From NCBI GenBank assembly GCA_019058365.1, contig JAHPZE010000018.1, forward strand, positions 17,801-81,800: DNA of 64,000 nt, written 5' to 3'. The notes beneath the pieces are model-generated. The model was given only the letters and a program-made list of their open reading frames with translations, did no database searches and had not been told where the DNA came from. Source of the DNA: Promethearchaeota archaeon. GTDB lineage: Archaea > Asgardarchaeota > Lokiarchaeia > Sigyniarchaeales > SOKP01. Position 1 is the stretch's first letter, and each line of letters begins with the position of its first letter. The translations under genes and the position numbers were made by a program. Positions 1,266-9,691 of the stretch are shown one piece after another.

Positions 1266-1441
1266 ATGGATCACCCTTTTTTGATTCTACATAAAACCGA
1301 AGTTTATGCAATCTTCGAATTACTTTGGTGCTATATAAACCTTCACCTTTTTGTCATAGACAATTTGATTACGGTTTGTCGGCTTATGTAGATATTAATA
1401 AAGAGAGTATTGAAGATATCTATCAAAAAAATGGATTGATT

Positions 1442-2644
1442 TCAATTATCTACAGCCCTTAAAAGATTTATCAGATCATTATAACTAAAGATAACTATCC
1501 TATCACTATAAACTCGTAAGGTTAGATCAATATCTTCTCTTTTAAAATTATCATAATTCCCAACAATTCCTATTAATAATGGATTTTTTACTTTCACTTT
1601 ATATTGTTCATACACCCATTGAGTATTTACTCTGTTATCAAAATAACGATCATAAGTATTGAGTTGTCCAATTAATTCACTAACATACTTATTAAATCTA
1701 GGTCTTTTTTTTCCGCCAATAACTAGATTTTCATAATGTAAAGCTGATCTCTTTAAATCCAGAATATCAAAATAACCATCATCTCTCTCCATTAAATAAT
1801 CGGGAATACTTTCATCTGGATCATCAGAGTATTGCTTCTCAATCCATTTTAGATTTTTCTGGCTTAGGCATTTCTTATATCCTAATGCTTTACTGAAGAA
1901 ATTAGCATGATTTTGAATAAAACTATCTAAAAGAGGTTCAGTAACGTTTTGATCAGTCAAGCTTAATAACTGTTTTGCAAATAAATCAACAGAAGAAGAG
2001 TGACCAATATTTAAACCAAAGATGTCTAGACTTGGAGGTGAATAATATTTCTCACAAACTGATTGGAGCCAATGACGTAGATTTTTCTCTGTTATTGATT
2101 TCTTAACTATTATTGCTGTTGAAATATACTTAAAATAAATTCGAAAGAGATCAGTTCGTATGAAATTTAGCTTTCTGAAATATGCAGATTGAATATCAGG
2201 AAGTATATTTATAATATTATCAACACTTTCACCTATTAATATTGTTCTTGAAAGAGGGAAGTTTACCTTTTTTGAAAAAAGTTCCTCATCAAAATCAGTA
2301 CAAATAGTTAGTGTTGATAATCCAAAATTCTTTGCCTTTTTAACATCAAATACAGGTTTTTTTTTTTCTTCAATCTTAATCCCAGGATTTATAAAATATA
2401 TTGTATTATCAAATTTTTCTCTAGAATCTCTCAAATCTAAATTTATTTCGTCTTCATTTTTGATCTCTGTAGCCCCTAGAAGTTCTGCCATAAAATGATG
2501 AGGACTTTCACCAACTCTAATAAAGTTTGGAAAGGAATAATTTCCTTTAATTAAAATTTCTTTGTTCTTAATCTTTAAATATATCTTCACAAGATATTCA
2601 TTAAAGAAATCCTGAATAATTTTTCCAAATAATTTATAGTCCAT
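1442..2644 (-). CDS. Shedu-like (DUF4263/SduA-type) PD-(D/E)XK nuclease with unknown N-terminal domain
   Basis: C-terminal IPDYLMERDDGYFDILDLKR...LIGQLNTYDRYF...LIGIVG...FSYNDL; ORF track starts at 2677, ATG 2644 overlapping the upstream stop is more likely. Confidence 0.7.
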   Translation of the reverse strand: MDYKLFGKIIQDFFNEYLVKIYLKIKNKEILIKGNYSFPNFIRVGESPHHFMAELLGATEIKNEDEINLDLRDSREKFDNTIYFINPGIKIEEKKKPVFDVKKAKNFGLSTLTICTDFDEELFSKKVNFPLSRTILIGESVDNIINILPDIQSAYFRKLNFIRTDLFRIYFKYISTAIIVKKSITEKNLRHWLQSVCEKYYSPPSLDIFGLNIGHSSSVDLFAKQLLSLTDQNVTEPLLDSFIQNHANFFSKALGYKKCLSQKNLKWIEKQYSDDPDESIPDYLMERDDGYFDILDLKRSALHYENLVIGGKKRPRFNKYVSELIGQLNTYDRYFDNRVNTQWVYEQYKVKVKNPLLIGIVGNYDNFKREDIDLTLRVYSDRIVIFSYNDLINLLRAVDN

Positions 2645-3200
2645 GTGATTTTTTGATCTCTTTAAAATATGTTTCAAATAATTTGTATAATTTGTTAAAG
2701 AATGGTTTCGCTTCTTCTGCTTTTATCCTATCCACTTTCAGATGCTCATGAACGATTTGATTCCTAATTATTCTCCACTCATTCAACTCTCCTAATATAC
2801 CTGAAAAAATATTCAAATTCTCTTCTATCTCTTTTATGATTTCACTTAGATTTATCTGATCATCAAATTTAATTTCTTTATTTAATATGTCTTGATAAAA
2901 GGATCTATAGAAGATTTCTGCTCCTTTATATTTGAGCATGATAAAGTCACTGTAACGTCCATCATCAAAAGCTCTTTGAGCATCCCTATTAACTTCATAA
3001 ATTGTAGCCATAAAAGGTGGCAGATTCTGGGTTCCTATTTTAACACCATCAATGATTTTATTGAATATTTCTGAAACCCCTTGTACTATCTCTGATGGAC
3101 TTATTTTTGTGCCACCTTTATCTAGGGGTGGTATGACTTTAGATATATTCCGAAAAAATCCAAAAACCTTATTGATTACCTCCTCTTCTTTTGAGTTCAT
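2634..3200 (-). CDS. HEPN-domain protein (putative RNase)
   Basis: Helical protein with WRIIRNQIVHE (R-x4-H) motif near the C-terminus. Confidence 0.6.
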   Translation of the reverse strand: MNSKEEEVINKVFGFFRNISKVIPPLDKGGTKISPSEIVQGVSEIFNKIIDGVKIGTQNLPPFMATIYEVNRDAQRAFDDGRYSDFIMLKYKGAEIFYRSFYQDILNKEIKFDDQINLSEIIKEIEENLNIFSGILGELNEWRIIRNQIVHEHLKVDRIKAEEAKPFFNKLYKLFETYFKEIKKSHGL

Positions 3201-3262
3201 ATTTCTCCCTCAATTAATAAATAATATCAAATTGAAACTTAAGAAATTTATTAATTACTCTA

Positions 3263-4048
3263 TTAAATAGTTGGATATATCTTTGTCCATTTATTTTGTT
3301 GCATAAGAATAACCGAATTATTCATTAGTTTTATTACTTTTTTTCTATTTACTCCTTTTAATATTGGATGTTTATCTACACTATCATAGATTTGCATTCC
3401 TTTTTTCAAGAAATCAATTCCCAATAGAAAAAAATTTTTCATACCTTTATCGAGAGCGTTAATATGTCTATTACCAAAAATCTTATAAGTCATAGCTTCA
3501 AGCTGATAAGATTTAAATGGTTTTTTATTAATGGCATTCCATTTTTTTAAAAGTCTAATTAGTTTTGTAGCACGACCATCATTTCTCTGATTTAGATCAC
3601 TTAATTTTTTTTCATCTAACTCTGGATTTATAATGATAATTTTTTGATTTTCAGGTATTTTGTAATATCCTTTTTCTAAGTTAATAGCAGCTAAGCAGTC
3701 TAATTCGATGTCATTGTTAAAAATTCCTGGAATTGCATGAAAGTAAGGTGGCTTACGAGCAATTTTGAAGGGTTTATAAGATTTTTCTAACTCTATTAAT
3801 CTATTTTTAAAATAATTTAATAAATTATTTTCTTGATAATGCCCAATAAAATATACATCTACATCAAAATAATTTTTAATACTAGTATATCGTTTGAATC
3901 CTCCACAAAAACGATAATTATAACAATCTGGTACATGTTCTCTAAACTTTTCGAATATTTTTCTAACTGCATTTTTAATATGTTTCTGTTTTTGAGGTGA
4001 AATTTGAATTTTACTAACAATTTGTTCTAAAAACTCATTAGGTTTCAT
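3263..4048 (-). CDS. SMODS/CD-NTase-like nucleotidyltransferase
   Basis: FCGGFKRYTSIKNYFDVDVYF (G[GS]..R.T....DxD), third acidic residue in LDCLAA, C-lobe KLIRLLKKWN...FKSYQLE; ATG 4048 has a GAGG RBS (ORF track extends to 4093). Confidence 0.8.
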   Translation of the reverse strand: MKPNEFLEQIVSKIQISPQKQKHIKNAVRKIFEKFREHVPDCYNYRFCGGFKRYTSIKNYFDVDVYFIGHYQENNLLNYFKNRLIELEKSYKPFKIARKPPYFHAIPGIFNNDIELDCLAAINLEKGYYKIPENQKIIIINPELDEKKLSDLNQRNDGRATKLIRLLKKWNAINKKPFKSYQLEAMTYKIFGNRHINALDKGMKNFFLLGIDFLKKGMQIYDSVDKHPILKGVNRKKVIKLMNNSVILMQQNKWTKIYPTI

Positions 4049-4067
4049 TATATTCCTCTTATTTATT

Positions 4068-4790
4068 TTATTTGAATGGTTGAATTTTAACATCGATTTT
4101 CATATTTGACATTGAAAATAACTCATTATTGCCCTTTTTATTTATCCCTAAATACACACATGGTAAATAATATTTATTTGCCATCTCGAGTAATTTAAAC
4201 GAAAATAATTTACTTAAGGGTGTTAAATCTATAATTATATCTGCATTTTTCATCTTATCACTCAAAATACTTTCAACTTTATGAAAGAATTCTGATTCGA
4301 TATGACGATAATCTTCATATGGAAATTTAATAAAAGAATCGATTTTTATCAAACTTTCTTGTTTTTGATGTTCCTTCCTCTTTTTCAACGCATCTGGACT
4401 TGTAAAGCACACTATCCGAGAGACTGGATAATATTTTTCTTTTAATATTTGAAATATTATATCCGGAAGTTTATAACCTGTCCCAAGAGTTCCGAAACCA
4501 GTTATTAATGTATAATCCTTGACTTTAAATCCAAGAATCTTGCGAACATGTTGACGAGCAGAAGGATCTAACGAAATTCTATTAATTCTCGCATTCCCTA
4601 TTTTTTGAACCATTATTTTTCGAATTAGATTATACTTCTCCATCCTGGTTAGGTGATAATGTAAATTTGAACCTGTTGTATTCAGTGCTTTTTGTAATTC
4701 ATGTTGTAAATATTCTTTTTCAAACAATAATTTGAGAATTTGTATCTGATTCTCTGAGAAATCATCAGTATTTAGTCCAAAAATCATCAA
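4068..4790 (-). CDS. wHTH (ArsR-like) transcription regulator fused to a C-terminal CARF-like domain
   Basis: N-terminal LQHELQKALNTTGSNLHYHLTRMEKYNLI; C-terminal TLITGFG...RIVCFTS...IIIDLTPLSKLFS...PCVYL matches the CARF Rossmann motifs. Confidence 0.65.
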   Translation of the reverse strand: MMIFGLNTDDFSENQIQILKLLFEKEYLQHELQKALNTTGSNLHYHLTRMEKYNLIRKIMVQKIGNARINRISLDPSARQHVRKILGFKVKDYTLITGFGTLGTGYKLPDIIFQILKEKYYPVSRIVCFTSPDALKKRKEHQKQESLIKIDSFIKFPYEDYRHIESEFFHKVESILSDKMKNADIIIDLTPLSKLFSFKLLEMANKYYLPCVYLGINKKGNNELFSMSNMKIDVKIQPFK

Positions 4791-4938
4791 AATATGTATT
4801 TTTTCTTAGGTTAAAATATTTTCTTTAACAGCGATTAGATGATTTAGTTAACAACGATTAAAGATTTATTTTTAAAGGTCCAAAAAAACCTATTACTTAA
4901 CAAAATTAAATATAAATTCTAAAAATGAGGTAAAAAGA

Positions 4939-5061
4939 ATGGCAAAAAATAAAATGACACCAAAAGCTGCTCGTAGAATCCAATCACATGCAGATAAAAC
5001 TAGTAGGAATCAAGACTTTAAAGCAAGAGCTCAAAGAGCTGCTTCTAAGGGTAAAAAGTAA
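4939..5061 (+). CDS. 40 aa small basic protein, SMP/seed-maturation (LEA-like) type
   Basis: MAKNKMTPKAARRIQSHADKTSRNQDFKARAQRAASKGKK; GAGGT RBS at 4927-4931; below the ORF-track cutoff. Confidence 0.75.
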   Translation: MAKNKMTPKAARRIQSHADKTSRNQDFKARAQRAASKGKK

Positions 5062-5172: not shown

Positions 5173-6096
5173 ATGAATAAGAATGATTATCCTTTAAAGC
5201 AAAAAATTAAATGTCCTATATGTAATTCAGAATTCATCCCAGAGTCTTTTAATGTTGAGAAATTGGATATTGATCAGTCATTGAATTTAGGTGAAATTTA
5301 TCGATCTGATGAAACTGACTCAAAATCAAAAATTAAACCTCTAACTATAATGCGTAGAGCATGGGTCACTTATTGTCTTGATTGTAATCATGCTATTAGG
5401 TTTGCTGCCGAAATTTTAAGAAAGGAAATTGTAGAAAAACCGTCAAACAGTCCCAATAGTGGTGAATTTAAAGAATCTAGTAATACTTATAAATATAATA
5501 TATATACATTCAAAAAGCCCTTTATGGAATTAATTGACTACAGGATAGGAGTAATGGATCGTATAAAGAACGATATCAAAACGACTTTGGATGAATTGAG
5601 AATCTCTGAATGGGGTGCAAAGTATAATGCTTGGAAAAATGAAAAAACTATCGATTCCTTTAAATTTTTTACACAATTCATTTCAAACTTAGATAACCAT
5701 TACAAATCAATTTTTAAAAATGATATAAATAAAGACATGCCCGAGAAAATTAGAGAACTTAACCTCCCAAAAGATCTAGAAAACCTATTGTTAGAAGTTA
5801 ATAGGATTAGAAATAAAATGATTCATAACGATTATGAATTAAAAGAAAGCGATGAAATAGTTATTGATGATGCTTACTTTAATTTGATGTTTTATCTTAT
5901 TTCAAAAGCATTAATCGCCTTAAATCTAACTAGCCATACAGATGAAAGTAATGCTAGCTTTATTGATATTGATTACCTTTCTAATGAGCTTAGGACTTTT
6001 TTACATATTCATTTAGGTGAAAGCCTGGGATTGAAAAAATTTTATGATCCATTTTTGATACCATTACTGAAATTGCTGAAAATACCCATTAATTAA
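5173..6096 (+). CDS. Zn-ribbon + HEPN-like domain protein
   Basis: CPIC...CLDC pair at the N-terminus; NRIRNKMIHND (R-x4-H) in the C-terminal helical domain. Confidence 0.55.
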   Translation: MNKNDYPLKQKIKCPICNSEFIPESFNVEKLDIDQSLNLGEIYRSDETDSKSKIKPLTIMRRAWVTYCLDCNHAIRFAAEILRKEIVEKPSNSPNSGEFKESSNTYKYNIYTFKKPFMELIDYRIGVMDRIKNDIKTTLDELRISEWGAKYNAWKNEKTIDSFKFFTQFISNLDNHYKSIFKNDINKDMPEKIRELNLPKDLENLLLEVNRIRNKMIHNDYELKESDEIVIDDAYFNLMFYLISKALIALNLTSHTDESNASFIDIDYLSNELRTFLHIHLGESLGLKKFYDPFLIPLLKLLKIPIN

Positions 6097-6124
6097 TCAA
6101 GAAATTGTGAAAAATAAACTGTTT

Positions 6125-6430
6125 TATATCATTCTTTCTTAATTAATAAAATGTGAAAGAATTAACAGCAAGAGAAGACCAATGGTTAGAAGCATTTGCT
6201 AAAAATCATGAATTTTTCGCTTCCTTCCTGCTCCATCACAAATTAAAACATCATTTATCTAATAATCAATATTATTGGCTGTGTCTCTATATCAATCAAG
6301 CAGAGGAGAATGGTGATACTCTACTAACTACTGAAGAAATAACATTTCTGGAAAAAGAATCTGAAACCAATGAAAGTGTGAGAGAATTATTGGAATTGTA
6401 TAAAGATAAAGGATATGTAGAAAATTTGAA
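6125..6430 (+). repeat. Diverged direct repeat, copy 1 (upstream region + 5' end of LRR gene)
   Basis: Aligns with 12667-12972, including the identical run aaaaatcatgaatttttcgcttccttcctgctccatcacaaattaaaacat. Confidence 0.9.
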
Positions 6431-7202
6431 GTATCAAGAATTATTAATGTTGAAAGCTAAGATTATGGGAGAAACGGAAGAAGTCAATCAAAAAGTAAGT
6501 AATTTTAAGCATAAAATTGTAAAAGTACTTTGTCCTCATTGCAATTCTCTTTGTTCACCCAAAATTTCGTATTGTTCTAAGTGCGGTGAACCTTTACCTA
6601 AATTAGTTGATTCTAATGAGTATAGTGAGGTTTCAGATGTAATTGATGTGGATTATACCGAAAGGAATATAATTTTTGCCCTTGAAAAATTAATCGATAA
6701 ATCTCTACCCCTACAAGAGAAATTTGACACTAATTCAACTTGCTACGTTAAAGAAGGGGATGATATTACTGGTTTGAGTATCTTCAATTGTGGATTAAGT
6801 GCCTTTCCAAGCGAGATTCTAAGGATTAAATCACTTAAACATTTAGCACTTAGAAGAAATAAAATCAATGATTTACCAAAAAATATTGGATTTCTTTCCA
6901 ACCTTGAATTACTGGATTTGCGTATAAATAAACTCGAGAGGTTGCCAACCGCAATAGGACTCCTTTATAAATTGAAAAATTTAAACCTCAGCTCGAACAA
7001 TTTGACGATGATTCCAGATTCAATCGGAGACATACTGATGCTGAAAAAGCTCAACTTGAGTAATAATAAGTTAAAAAGCATACCTAAGTGTATTGAAAAT
7101 TTAAACTGCCTTGAAACCTTAAATTTAAAGGCAAATTACTGGATTAACATTCCCGAGAGTGTAGAAAAGTTAAAAGACCAGAGGCTCCAAATTATCCTAT
7201 AA
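6153..7202 (+). CDS. Double Zn-ribbon + leucine-rich-repeat protein
   Basis: CPHCNSLC...CSKCGEPL followed by ~5 LxxLxLxxNxLxxLP repeats. Confidence 0.9.
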   Translation: MKELTAREDQWLEAFAKNHEFFASFLLHHKLKHHLSNNQYYWLCLYINQAEENGDTLLTTEEITFLEKESETNESVRELLELYKDKGYVENLKYQELLMLKAKIMGETEEVNQKVSNFKHKIVKVLCPHCNSLCSPKISYCSKCGEPLPKLVDSNEYSEVSDVIDVDYTERNIIFALEKLIDKSLPLQEKFDTNSTCYVKEGDDITGLSIFNCGLSAFPSEILRIKSLKHLALRRNKINDLPKNIGFLSNLELLDLRINKLERLPTAIGLLYKLKNLNLSSNNLTMIPDSIGDILMLKKLNLSNNKLKSIPKCIENLNCLETLNLKANYWINIPESVEKLKDQRLQIIL

Positions 7203-7259
7203 GAGTCTCAATCCCTTCATTTGAAAAAGACTTAAATATTAAAAATCTTACCTAATTTT

Positions 7260-8429
7260 GTGAATGAGACAGAAGTTGTTTCTATAATTTGTGAACATCT
7301 ACAAAAAGAAAATTGGCAACTCTGGATTGATGATCATCCTATTCATAAAGATTTGCAATATAAAAAACATTGTTTATTGATTGGTGGAGCTCGTCCTGAT
7401 ATTTTTGGATTAAATAATGTTAAGCAAGTCTTCGCTGTAGAAGTAAAAGGTTTAAAAGACTATAAAAAAGCAATAGGGCAAGCTCTTATTTATAAATCTG
7501 GAGTAAATGTTTCTTATATAGGTGGATTGAATGACTTATTGAACAACATTTCTAATGTTGCATTATCCTCAGGTCTAGGATTAATTTCAGTAAACGAATC
7601 AAATTTTGACGTGGAAGTTATTAACCCCATCTATAACATATCTCCGATTTATTTAGATGATATCAAAAATGAGTTAAAGGTACTCCAAAATCAAAAAAAG
7701 AAAAATAGAAGTTTCTCCTCATTTGGAAGAACCCATATAATTAATTATTTTGCTCCAATTTTTTTATTTCAAGATAGATTCGCTAAAAAAAAAGAAGAAT
7801 TAATAGCTGATTTTGAAAGAGTTAATTGGGCAAATAAAGCTTATCCCGAGTTAATAAACGGAGCAAATACGATAGGATTATTAGATATATGTGATGATGG
7901 TTATAATATATCAAAAATCGGTCGATTTTGCTTGGAACATTTTACATCAATCAATATCGACTCAATCGATAAATTATCAGAAACTTTAAATCAAACTAAG
8001 AGAAATAAGTCTGTATATTCAGAGTTCCCCTCTCTCGCTAAATTTCTACAGTTGATTTATTTTCAAAATCCTGACTTTAAACAATTCATCTCAATTCTTC
8101 AAAACATAAAGGATAAAGAGATAAATTCAAAAATGATTATCGATAAGTTAATTCTTGATTATCCGAACCTTTTTTTGAATTTCTTTATTAAACCTACTGC
8201 TAAAGACCAAGTAGTTTCAATATTTTTATCTGGAGATAAAGAACAATTGATGGAGGATTATAATAAAATGATATCAGATTTTGGGCACTATAATTTCTTT
8301 TTTGCATTTAAGCGACATTTAGTGCATCTGGGTATTTTGAGCCAAGAAAATACAACCTTTTATAAAAAATCTAGTGAATTAAATGTCGAAAATGATATTT
8401 GGATTTTAGGAGATGATATTTTAATTTAA
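7260..8429 (+). CDS. PD-(D/E)XK restriction-like endonuclease with C-terminal helical/wHTH region
   Basis: RPDIFG...FAVEVKG...KKAIGQALIY motif. Confidence 0.7.
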   Translation: MNETEVVSIICEHLQKENWQLWIDDHPIHKDLQYKKHCLLIGGARPDIFGLNNVKQVFAVEVKGLKDYKKAIGQALIYKSGVNVSYIGGLNDLLNNISNVALSSGLGLISVNESNFDVEVINPIYNISPIYLDDIKNELKVLQNQKKKNRSFSSFGRTHIINYFAPIFLFQDRFAKKKEELIADFERVNWANKAYPELINGANTIGLLDICDDGYNISKIGRFCLEHFTSINIDSIDKLSETLNQTKRNKSVYSEFPSLAKFLQLIYFQNPDFKQFISILQNIKDKEINSKMIIDKLILDYPNLFLNFFIKPTAKDQVVSIFLSGDKEQLMEDYNKMISDFGHYNFFFAFKRHLVHLGILSQENTTFYKKSSELNVENDIWILGDDILI

Positions 8430-8440
8430 TTATTATGATT

Positions 8441-9691
8441 TTATTCGCTATTTTCTGATAAAAAGTTGAAAATGCGACCAGGAATTATCTCAAGGATTTT
8501 TTGCCTTTCACTTTTGAGAAAATTAATAATTTCTTCCTCAATTAATTCATTTTCCCGCGTTAAAATATCCAAATCCTTATTTTTATGTAAATTAAAATAG
8601 AAGTATTTCAAATCATTATTAATTAATGGATGCTCTTTATTTATTAGGCATAATTTAATGTGGGATCTGATATTTTCCTCCAACGATTCAGTCCATTCAG
8701 GAATATTATTTGATTTCTTGATATTTATTGTTGGATCGGAAGGATATAAATTCCAAAATCGATTAATTGGATAAAATGACCAAGGTAAAAAGTGGTCAAT
8801 ATGAAAAGCTTCTTCTGGCTCAAATATTGTTCCTGAATAAATGCATTTTCTTGAATCGATTTCTTCATAAAAGTCTCGATAATGGGATATTAGCAATGGA
8901 TCACGGGCTAAATCACTTGTATAGATATATCCTAAAAGTTTATATAATAATATTTCAAAATTAGAAGAGTCTCTCCTCCTGCTTTCTCCTTCAAGAGAAT
9001 AGTTAAACCATGACCTTAAAATGACATCTCTAGCCCAAAAACGATATCGTGCTAATTCCTGATATGTCATATCGTCTATTATTAAGGAAGTATTATCAAA
9101 TTGAAGCAATTCTGCCCATGTCATTGAACTGGGGTGTTTCTGCTTTATAGCTTGTGACCGATGCTCATCATATGAAGATTTAAATGGTATTTCACTATTT
9201 AACATACCAAAAAATCTTATTATCTCACCATTGACATTATGTAAATAATTTAAAGGCTGTAATAGTATCCTTTCTCTCACATTCCATAATAAATCTAATA
9301 AACTTTCTGGTAATAAATCCGGAAGCTCATACAACCGATTTATCCAAAAAATTCCGCTCTCGTCTAAAGTTAAGATTTTATGAAGAATTTTTTCTTGGAT
9401 GCCTTTTTCTGATGGCAATTTAAGCTTAAAGTCTTCAATATAGTTCAATACTCTCAAGGTTTTATCAGCTGCTAAGGAACCTTGGTAAAAATCATGAAAA
9501 GAAAACGGATAATAATAGGAAATGAATTGATGAGATAAATAGACAATTGGAATGAAATGTAGATTGTTTATCGGTTGCTCTGAAGGGTGTTCAGTAATAA
9601 AATCAAATATTCCGAGCAGTGTAGCATACTTATATGATGTTGTTTTCCGTCCGTATTCTAAAATGTTATTAATATCGCGAATTAACGTCAT
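8441..9691 (-). CDS. HNH endonuclease domain protein
   Basis: N-terminal KTTSYKYATL; C-terminal CIYSG...HIDHFLPWS...WNL...IN..KS. Confidence 0.8.
   Translation of the reverse strand: MTLIRDINNILEYGRKTTSYKYATLLGIFDFITEHPSEQPINNLHFIPIVYLSHQFISYYYPFSFHDFYQGSLAADKTLRVLNYIEDFKLKLPSEKGIQEKILHKILTLDESGIFWINRLYELPDLLPESLLDLLWNVRERILLQPLNYLHNVNGEIIRFFGMLNSEIPFKSSYDEHRSQAIKQKHPSSMTWAELLQFDNTSLIIDDMTYQELARYRFWARDVILRSWFNYSLEGESRRRDSSNFEILLYKLLGYIYTSDLARDPLLISHYRDFYEEIDSRKCIYSGTIFEPEEAFHIDHFLPWSFYPINRFWNLYPSDPTINIKKSNNIPEWTESLEENIRSHIKLCLINKEHPLINNDLKYFYFNLHKNKDLDILTRENELIEEEIINFLKSERQKILEIIPGRIFNFLSENSE

Follow-up and report, generated by a model that had tools for sequence, protein, structure and literature searches.

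A putative autoregulated composite defence cassette headed by a portable wHTH-CARF regulator in a Lokiarchaeial genome

The 64,000-nt stretch of DNA analyzed here (the window) carries on its minus strand four closely packed open reading frames (ORFs) for a regulator, a nucleotidyltransferase (NTase), a HEPN protein, and the nuclease SduA. With gene starts re-set from homologue lengths and ribosome-binding sites, the first gene (4068..4787, minus strand) encodes a 239-residue protein with an ArsR/MarR-type winged helix (wHTH) at residues 1-88 and a CARF domain at residues 89-233. After a gap of 19 nt follows the gene for a 261-residue CD-NTase-like (SMODS) nucleotidyltransferase with the catalytic residues GG...DVD...D (3263..4048, minus strand) and, after another 62 nt, that for a stand-alone HEPN protein of 188 residues with an RNQIVH motif at R146-H151 (2634..3200, minus strand). 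The stop of the HEPN gene overlaps by 11 nt the start of the last gene (1442..2644, minus strand), which encodes a Shedu SduA nuclease of 400 residues with its own N-terminal domain. A run of seven T, read from the sequence as a probable archaeal oligo-T terminator, lies 11 nt past the SduA stop (1425..1431, minus strand). Such a run is found only after SduA, and a single conserved promoter/operator region precedes all four genes, an arrangement that suggests co-transcription. According to profiles, motifs, and fold comparisons, the four domain calls of the first-pass annotation (CARF, CD-NTase, HEPN, and Shedu) all hold. No paralogue of any of the four proteins was found in the same genome by tblastn. 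HNH and LRR genes neighbor the operon.

Upstream of the regulator gene lies a BRE/TATA-like element (CCTTTAAAAATA, 4867..4878, minus strand) that is conserved in 32 distinct regions upstream of regulator homologues, whatever their cargo, and to which we assign a promoter role from what is known of archaeal promoters. Operator O1 (TAATCGTTGTTAA, 4848..4860, minus strand) follows the TATA box after 6 nt; its imperfect palindrome fits the pattern TTAAySGCSrTTAA and corresponds to the peak of information content in the alignment of regulator upstream regions. A second operator, O2 (TAATCGCTGTTAA, 4825..4837, minus strand), lies 37 nt ahead of the ATG and is spaced 23 bp from O1, a distance that recurs in 11/11 loci where both sites fit the strict pattern. 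The paired site occurs only once in the 4.74-Mb genome, ahead of this operon, and the combination of a TATA box with two operators 23 bp apart is the common architecture ahead of regulator homologues with every cargo type. These conserved operators bear out the earlier description of the protein as a transcription factor. A sigma-70 promoter scan, irrelevant for an archaeon, stayed at chance level.

The regulator matches the Pfam HTH_5 profile (6e-5) and the PADLOC profile CARF_m5 (2.9e-13), a label that comes from the CARF classification of Makarova et al. 2020. Its AF2 model has a pLDDT of 90.5, and residues 89-233 match solved CARF domains, with CARF proteins throughout among the best fold matches (VIA-align). 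The closest is Can2 (8bao; Z 12.8, rmsd 2.2, 118 residues aligned), while Cdn1, Csm6, and Card1 range between Z 11.4 and 12.7 (Cdn1 9u49, Z 12.7; Csm6 6tug, Z 12.6), and Foldseek also aligned the regulator with Csm6 (E 3e-5). Two conserved loop motifs, one following strand 1 and one following strand 4, line the ligand site of CARF domains; the second has the form [DN]x[ST]xxx[RK]. The corresponding loops of the regulator, LITGFG (G97 and G99) and DLTPLSK (D187, T189, and K193), do not vary among 45 relatives, nor do G104, Y105, and P108 (45/45 aligned regulators). The fold match together with this DxTxxxK-type motif confirms that the C-terminal domain is a CARF domain, as first proposed, and the regulator family would be expected, by analogy of fold, to bind a ligand of the cyclic-oligonucleotide type. 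The family comprises 72 relatives, every named one from Loki-type Asgard archaea, and its distribution is patchy: 15/400 genomes of the phylum carry it, and among 53 genomes of the same genus only one other full-length copy was found.

The NTase matches the PADLOC Cyclase profile PDLC00823 (5.5e-27), and it also matches NCBIfam CBASS_cyclase_b (2.2e-18; 66.9 bits, under the cut-off of 200 bits) and Pfam SMODS (6.7e-5, under the cut-off). Its GG, DVD, and D117 residues align with those of 6p8u/6p82, and the catalytic residues are invariant in the family. Judged by these residues, the enzyme keeps the G[GS]...DxD...D active site of CD-NTases and is predicted to be active. The locus shows no Cap2/Cap3 or HORMA/TRIP13-type partner next to the enzyme. 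A sister NTase family (300-316 residues), present in 16/53 genomes of the genus, lacks the wHTH-CARF regulator and lies beside a Dsr1-like protein; two more distant relatives, P0118 (beside an OLD/GajA-like ATPase) and P0122 (beside a Dsr1-like protein), offer no sensor-effector partner by which the enzyme could be classified.

Sequence matches of the HEPN protein are weak (4e-4), and neither a profile sequence search of the PDB (no meaningful match) nor a Foldseek comparison of its model with PDB structures (no match at E <= 0.001) placed it. In a wide VIA-align search, the best matches were almost all HEPN domains (Z 8.5-11.5), such as those of sacsin (Z 11.5), AF_0298 (Z 10.9), and TT1696 (Z 10.6). 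Since Z values below 13 are weak for helical bundles, the assignment rests jointly on the fold and on the W-R-x-x-R-N-x-I-x-H motif, which is invariant in nine relatives and includes RNQIVH. The N-terminal ~60 residues are modelled at low confidence and the rest consists of the HEPN fold only; profiles and fold searches detected no sensor domain in the 188 residues, where a hidden one is conceivable. A complex prediction for the NTase and the HEPN protein, each given as an alignment, scored 0.00 and counts neither way.

SduA matches the PADLOC SduA profile PDLC00377 over its full length (2.5e-54; residues 12-403 of the 411-residue ORF) and Pfam SduA_C under the cut-off (7e-4). Its PD-(D/E)xK site is intact, with D282 and D296-x-K298 invariant in 17 relatives. 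A sequence search of the PDB gave no meaningful match, and an atlas look-up of the N-terminal part gave a lead to SduA_N at a score of 0.85, below the trust level. Shedu has been described as a single-gene system (10.1101/2023.08.10.552793). Two homologues, P0089 and P0096 (52% and 46% identity), are isolated genes with neighbors on the opposite strand, and stand-alone homologues retain the N-terminal domain. No SduA gene was present in the other surveyed regulator loci. Comparative sequence data thus make SduA an apparently autonomous gene elsewhere, appended to the cassette here, and the four-gene order put forward in the first-pass annotation is not conserved.

A survey of 50 regulator-bearing loci revealed at least 15 unrelated cargo clusters behind the regulator. 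The NTase is found at 9 loci, the HEPN family accounts for 12 ORFs from 9 loci, and TPR proteins of ~1000 residues occur at 9 loci; further cargo includes a Mokosh-like MkoA and PLD set (helicase/PLD), a STAND NTPase, an RNase III-like protein, and others. The cargo lies on the strand of the regulator and at most 400 nt behind it in the large majority of surveyed loci. On a tree of 39 regulators, the cargo changed 19 times. The nearest relatives of the regulator studied here, L003 (82% identity, with HEPN-only cargo) and L005 (81%, with TPR cargo), lack an NTase yet share its pocket residues and operators. On sequence grounds, the wHTH-CARF gene is a portable regulator module that carries its own promoter and operators ahead of unrelated defence genes. 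Because it can stand before so many of them, the four genes are better seen as stacked modules than as one fixed new signalling system, and the regulator is not reserved for NTase cassettes.

The NTase is nonetheless a frequent partner. Among NTase relatives retrieved by an independent search, the regulator is followed directly by the NTase in 8 of the 9 informative ones, so the predicted adjacency of the two genes is conserved elsewhere. All eight NTase-linked regulators on the tree (8/8) fall within a single clade of 14 rows, whereas none of the 19 regulators of the sister clade is linked to an NTase. Five of seven fully read NTase loci have a HEPN-domain protein after the NTase (the present locus, L052, L053, L054, and L007, the last AbiV-type). 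HEPN relatives also stand behind the regulator without an NTase in L003, L019, and L043, and in L043 (63% identity) the short HEPN gene comes directly after the regulator. Given the 81-82% identical regulators without an NTase and a CARF pocket that is invariant family-wide, the ligand is probably not specific to this cassette. Within the 14-row clade, to which all NTase-linked regulators belong, a dedicated link between NTase and CARF may exist.

A possible source of such a ligand lies elsewhere in the genome. Another contig (C24) bears a CRISPR array of ~106 repeats together with a Cas10-like palm protein, RAMP proteins, and a Cas_NE0113 CARF accessory protein, a type III-like set. The Cas10-like protein is short (553 residues) and has NGDD in place of GGDD, which makes its cyclase activity uncertain. 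A Cas10 palm domain is present in three of five other regulator-bearing metagenome-assembled genomes (MAGs); the two MAGs without it are incomplete. The window contains no cas genes and no repeats of the genome's CRISPR array, but given the type III-like locus on C24, the earlier view that the cassette works independently of CRISPR is unproven and fails for the genome as a whole.

Taken together, we lean, if only slightly, towards reading the locus as a composite defence cassette that regulates itself within a Lokiarchaeial defence island, with a portable regulator ahead of a swappable cargo slot. The slot would here hold a two-gene CD-NTase-like and HEPN module, with an autonomous Shedu nuclease appended. 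A regulator dimer would sit on O1 and O2, immediately past the TATA box and across the expected transcription start, and its occupancy would keep the whole operon low, including two potentially toxic nucleases. Binding of a cyclic-oligonucleotide-type ligand in the conserved CARF pocket would alter DNA binding and induce the operon. Since the ligand would be common to the whole regulator family, a cell-wide alarm, for instance cyclic oligoadenylate (cOA) from the C24 type III-like CRISPR locus, seems likelier than a product unique to the cassette, and the NTase of the cassette may feed the same ligand pool. Once made, the HEPN protein (a predicted RNase) and SduA (a predicted DNase) would each act by their own mechanism.

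A closed circuit, in which the CARF regulator senses a cyclic (oligo)nucleotide made by the NTase encoded next to it and output runs through HEPN and SduA transcription, strikes us as rather unlikely. Infection might activate the NTase so that the ligand lifts repression, as in CBASS; alternatively, as in Panoptes, the NTase might be always on and the ligand-bound regulator repressive until viral sponges or ring nucleases drain the pool and the nucleases come on. The position of the NTase directly behind the regulator, the confinement of NTase-linked regulators to one clade, the invariant catalytic residues, and the lack of a Cap2/Cap3 or HORMA/TRIP13-type partner at the locus are all consistent with this circuit, and the HEPN protein showed no further sensor domain, while SduA needs none. 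Precedents exist for decoy signalling in Panoptes (PMC12657218) and for transcriptional output of cOA in Csa3 (PMC8699464) and CalpLTS (10.1101/2025.07.01.662501). However, regulators at 81-82% identity with the same pocket and operators head NTase-free cassettes, the sister clade of regulators does without any NTase, L043 has its HEPN gene directly behind the regulator, and the sister NTase family works without the regulator. A narrower version, in which the NTase-bearing clade forms a self-contained nucleotide-signalling circuit with the transcription factor as sole receptor and a repressor flip, by either of these two routes, frees the HEPN and Shedu nucleases, is likewise unlikely in our judgment. 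Of the CBASS-like circuit through transcription suggested by the first-pass annotation, the NTase, the CARF regulator, the operators, and the adjacency stand; the sharing of the regulator with NTase-free cassettes and the unconserved four-gene order speak against it.

In HepT toxins, the AMPylated tyrosine lies in an Rx4HxY motif, two positions after the catalytic histidine, and the mutant name of entry 7ae2 (H107A-Y109F) agrees with this. The NTase and HEPN genes might resemble a toxin-antitoxin pair of the MntA-HepT kind, nucleotidylation neutralizing or modifying the HEPN protein with no diffusible signal and the regulator being a plain autorepressor. HepT or AMPylated HEPN toxins do occur among the structural matches (5yep, Z 9.7; 8xdj, Z 9.2; 7ae2, Z 8.9), and a HEPN-domain protein often follows the NTase, as described above. 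Nevertheless, the 261-residue CD-NTase-like enzyme is not a minimal one (~130 residues in MNT), the residue two past the catalytic histidine in HEPN relatives is histidine or another residue and never a conserved tyrosine, which sets the pair apart from type VII HepT-MntA, and HEPN relatives occur behind NTase-free regulators; we regard this alternative as improbable. That the four genes are chance neighbors in a crowded defence island, neither co-transcribed nor under shared control, is scarcely credible: the island is dense, with HNH and LRR genes nearby, and SduA is a recent addition at this locus only, but the genes share one strand with short gaps and a start/stop overlap, one conserved promoter/operator and one final oligo-T run, and regulator and cargo keep strand and proximity in most loci.

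The favored reading, a portable regulator with swappable cargo, combines Csa3-like sensing with CapW/BrxR-like logic. Like Csa3 (Csa3a/Csa3b of Sulfolobales), a CARF-wHTH factor that binds cA4 (PMC8699464, PMC8844856), the regulator fuses a CARF sensor to a winged helix and would control immunity genes. In Csa3, however, the CARF domain is N-terminal, whereas here the wHTH comes first, and the PADLOC Csa3 model matches the wHTH part only (3.5e-4); Csa3 adjoins cas genes, whereas the present regulator, in a window with neither cas genes nor CRISPR repeats, heads swappable non-CRISPR cargo and is seen only in Loki-type Asgard archaea. It is, by domain order and context, not a Csa3 protein. The repressor CapW accompanies CBASS (PMC9122588), and CapW/BrxR proteins (PMC9122588, PMC11662680) are small ligand-sensing repressors that have operators in their own promoter and head defence operons of various kinds, one of which contains a CD-NTase, much as proposed here. 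Their wHTH-WYL(-WCX) architecture differs from that of the regulator, which has a C-terminal CARF domain and no WYL match; the two are therefore not homologous and resemble each other in logic only. The ligand of CapW is single-stranded DNA, whereas a cyclic or linear oligonucleotide is expected here from the fold.

Like a CBASS locus, the cassette lies in a defence island and combines nuclease genes with one for a SMODS/CD-NTase-like enzyme whose catalytic triad is intact. CBASS effectors carry their own sensor, whereas the cassette yielded none in which a SAVED, STING, or other sensor domain is fused to the effector: the HEPN protein has the HEPN fold only, SduA is conserved as a stand-alone protein, and the only CARF domain belongs to a transcription factor common to NTase-free cassettes. 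SduA resembles Shedu (10.1101/2023.08.10.552793, 10.1101/2023.08.10.552762) in its PADLOC match and in having close homologues alone in defence islands, and differs in being apparently translationally coupled to the HEPN gene under the promoter of a CARF regulator. A survey of 7,687 Shedu proteins linked them to restriction-modification and BREX, with no link to nucleotide signalling (10.1101/2023.08.10.552793). Panoptes (mCpol OptS with SAVED-2TM OptE; PMC12657218) might share the logic of a lone minimal cyclase without an infection sensor, whose product holds a sensor off; the likeness is speculative. Its cyclase is mCpol and its effector a membrane protein, compared to a CD-NTase-like enzyme and a transcription-factor sensor here.

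The regulation of innate-defence genes in archaea has been little studied. The present family of CARF-sensor, putatively repressing proteins travels in Loki-type Asgard archaea with its promoter and operators ahead of varied defence cargo, which suggests that a nucleotide alarm, possibly common with type III CRISPR, may license a changing arsenal of autonomous nucleases. Were the NTase to feed the regulator, the cassette would represent, in the archaea nearest to eukaryotes, CD-NTase signalling whose output is transcriptional. With its defined operator, small soluble regulator, and candidate cyclase, the locus lends itself to tests in vitro.

Two smaller features were also considered. A palindromic cassette-hub site of a recombination system, sought near the operon, occurs in the window only at its known position (42318-42343) when up to 3 mismatches are allowed, and this search gave no tie between the cassette and that system. 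Divergent from the regulator, an ORF for a basic protein of 40 residues (MAKNKMTPKAARRIQSH..., 4939..5061, plus strand) has no Pfam match, and its atlas look-up gave a lead to SMP at a score of 0.89, below the trust level. According to tblastn, the nearest loci retain this small ORF next to the regulator, with 70-89% identity in L003/L004/L009, L018, L052, L053/L054, and L014.

The four-gene cassette is best read as stacked modules, namely, a portable CARF repressor and its operator, an NTase and HEPN pair, and an autonomous Shedu. The first-pass annotation was correct in seeing four minus-strand ORFs at positions 1442-4790 of the window (C41:17801-81800 of a 4.74-Mb genome in 54 contigs), and their start codons were set from homologue lengths and ribosome-binding sites. 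The regulator (ATG at 4787; 239 aa) is followed after 19 nt by the NTase (ATG at 4048; 261 aa) and, across a 62-nt gap carrying a GAGGGAG ribosome-binding site, by the HEPN protein (ATG at 3200; 188 aa). SduA (ATG at 2644; 400 aa) overlaps the HEPN stop by 11 nt, and a minus-strand run of seven Ts (1425-1431) lies behind its own stop. GC content stays at about 28% throughout. Homologue names point to Lokiarchaeia/Promethearchaeia as the lineage. On the far side of the promoter, 5173-9691 encodes proteins of 307 aa (unknown), 349 aa (zinc ribbon and LRR), 389 aa (unknown), and 416 aa (HNH_4); the regulator of comparison locus L003 also has an LRR protein nearby.

Pfam, PADLOC, motif, and fold matches bear out the four domain types initially proposed. 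The regulator matched Pfam HTH_5 (6e-5) and PADLOC CARF_m5 (2.9e-13, residues 18-214). In its AF2 model (pLDDT 90.5; input alignment of 45 sequences), residues 1-88 resemble MarR/ArsR winged helices (Z about 11-12). In the same predicted model, residues 89-233 matched solved CARF domains, as anticipated for the C-terminal domain, with Can2 (8bao: Z 12.8, rmsd 2.2, 118 aligned) joined by Cdn1, Csm6, VC1899, Card1, ring nucleases, and Cad1; Foldseek matched Csm6 at E 3e-5. G97 and G99 (LITGFG), G104, Y105, P108, and D187, T189, and K193 (DLTPLSK) are invariant across the regulator family, at the position of ligand binding in CARF domains. The NTase matched PADLOC Cyclase (5.5e-27), NCBIfam CBASS_cyclase_b (2.2e-18; 66.9 bits, short of the cut-off of 200), and, slightly below cut-off, Pfam SMODS; its GG, DVD, and third Asp align with those of its best solved relatives, 6p8u and 6p82, and are kept in 11 relatives. 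The HEPN protein gave weak matches by sequence alone, but in a fold search of 48,161 chains, almost every top-ranking match was a HEPN domain (Z 8.5-11.5), and W142, R143, R146, N147, and H151 are invariant in nine relatives. SduA matched PADLOC PDLC00377 over its full length (2.5e-54), with D282 and D296-x-K298 invariant in 17 relatives.

The regulator has 72 relatives, every named one from Asgard archaea. Its distribution is patchy (15 of 400 genomes of the phylum), and the 53 genomes of the genus hold only one further full-length copy. When the same-strand genes behind the regulator were clustered in about 50 loci, at least 15 unrelated cargo clusters emerged. The NTase and a TPR protein of about 1000 aa occur in nine loci each; the HEPN family comes in forms of 188-460 aa sharing the C-terminal core of the cassette protein. 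Other cargo comprises a Mokosh-like MkoA helicase alongside a PLD nuclease, a STAND NTPase of 1631 aa, one RNase III-like and one HNH/Smr protein, and several unknowns. The closest relatives of the cassette regulator lead other cargo, a 356-aa HEPN protein without an NTase in L003 (82% identity) and a TPR protein amid AAA_15/Schlafen, RmuC, and GmrSD genes in L005 (81%). A tree of 39 regulators required 19 cargo changes; all eight NTase-linked regulators fell in one 14-row clade (SH-aLRT 84), and none in its 19-row sister clade. SduA was found in no other regulator locus among the roughly 50 surveyed. The single four-gene system first envisaged is, on these two counts of swapped cargo and absent SduA, not a fixed unit. 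SduA homologues at 52% and 46% identity stand alone as single genes within defence islands, in line with a published account in which Shedu is a single-gene system whose links are mainly with restriction-modification and BREX systems (10.1101/2023.08.10.552793).

Several loci showed further features. In the sister clade, the gene for a 271-aa radical-SAM protein (Pfam 3.8e-18) is divergent from that of the regulator, and the intergenic region common to both bears the operators (L045:8825-9640, minus strand; same position in L012, L025, L028, L029, L033, L036, and L039). L010 (JANBVM010000002.1), labelled "Patescibacteria group bacterium," carries a Loki-type regulator fragment with a 1046-aa TPR cargo and probably reflects either mis-binning of an Asgard contig or a transfer. 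In L066 (G140:C1:3466642-3467367), within a closed genome belonging to the same order, two TAA stops break up a regulator homologue, which looks like a decayed copy.

One layout precedes nearly all regulator homologues, irrespective of cargo: a conserved BRE/TATA block, CCTTTAAAAATA, then within a few bases O1 (TTTAAyCGCCrTT), about 12 bases later O2 (TTAAnCGCCGTTAAAG), and about 40 bases further the ATG. Information content of the upstream alignment peaks on these blocks, and the O1-O2 spacing is 23 bp in 11 of 11 strictly matching loci. On the minus strand of the window, the TATA box lies at 4867-4878 and predicted operators O1 and O2 at 4848-4860 and 4825-4837. The paired site is unique to the cassette promoter in the whole genome, where single matches to the pattern numbered 15; base composition would predict about 29. 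In archaea, sites immediately behind the TATA box lie over the expected transcription start, the usual repressor position, and from this general knowledge of archaeal transcription we infer that the regulator acts as a repressor. It resembles Csa3 in sensing (PMC8699464) and CapW/BrxR in logic (PMC9122588) but belongs to neither family. A basic 40-aa ORF (MAKNKMTPKAARRIQSHADK...) diverges from the regulator at 4939-5061 (plus strand) and is kept at 70-89% identity beside it in L003/L004/L009, L018, L052, and L053/L054; in L014, it lies on the regulator's strand. It had no Pfam match, and an Atlas search (score 0.89) gave a mere lead to small proteins, 19% of them with an SMP domain.

Independence from CRISPR, also proposed at first, is doubtful at genome level. 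The window contains neither cas genes nor copies of the repeat from the genome's array, but another contig carries a type III-like locus (C24:47000-66900, L056) with about 106 repeats of 37 nt (GTTGAAAAGTAAATAGCTTCAGAAAGAAGATTGAAAT), a Cas10/Cmr2-palm protein of 553 aa that has the motifs HIDGDNMG and NGDD (in place of GGDD), three RAMP proteins (792, 457, and 610 aa), a 189-aa protein, and a Cas_NE0113 CARF protein. The Cas10-like protein is unusually short, with a weak mCpol match. Together with the Cas10 palm domain found in three of five other regulator-bearing MAGs, this gene content makes a cOA source outside the cassette plausible.

A closed circuit, in which the NTase product switches the regulator, is possible and in our view rather doubtful, its decoy version modelled on Panoptes (PMC12657218) included. 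The regulator-NTase adjacency it implies is indeed conserved elsewhere, NTase-query relatives lying directly behind a regulator in eight of nine informative cases, and a HEPN-domain protein comes next in five of seven fully read NTase loci (of the same family in the cassette, L052, L053, and L054; AbiV-type in L007). However, this regulator is also found, with its pocket residues and operators unchanged, where there is no NTase, and in L043, a short HEPN protein (63% identity) sits directly behind the regulator. The N-terminal domain of long HEPN forms is likewise common to loci with and without an NTase, and a sister NTase family (300-316 aa; 16 of 53 genus genomes) stands beside a 917-aa Dsr1-like protein in genomes without the regulator. 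A MntA-HepT-type mechanism for the NTase and HEPN pair is unlikely: this NTase falls outside the minimal MNT type, and in the HEPN family no Tyr is conserved at the second position past the catalytic His.

The long HEPN forms (346-356 aa; L054:2002-3042, L052:2572-3618, and L003:8799-9869) begin with an N-terminal domain of about 100 aa (PKIIF...FINFI...), behind which come short GFxD..EY-type repeats, neither part matching Pfam or PADLOC. The sister SMODS-like NTases (L058:3426-9439, L059, and loci L079-L095) are flanked by a 513-aa unknown protein and the Dsr1-like protein (PADLOC 3.9e-43), which faintly resembles a pPIWI-associated nuclease at its N terminus; with the latter protein, they may form an undescribed system.
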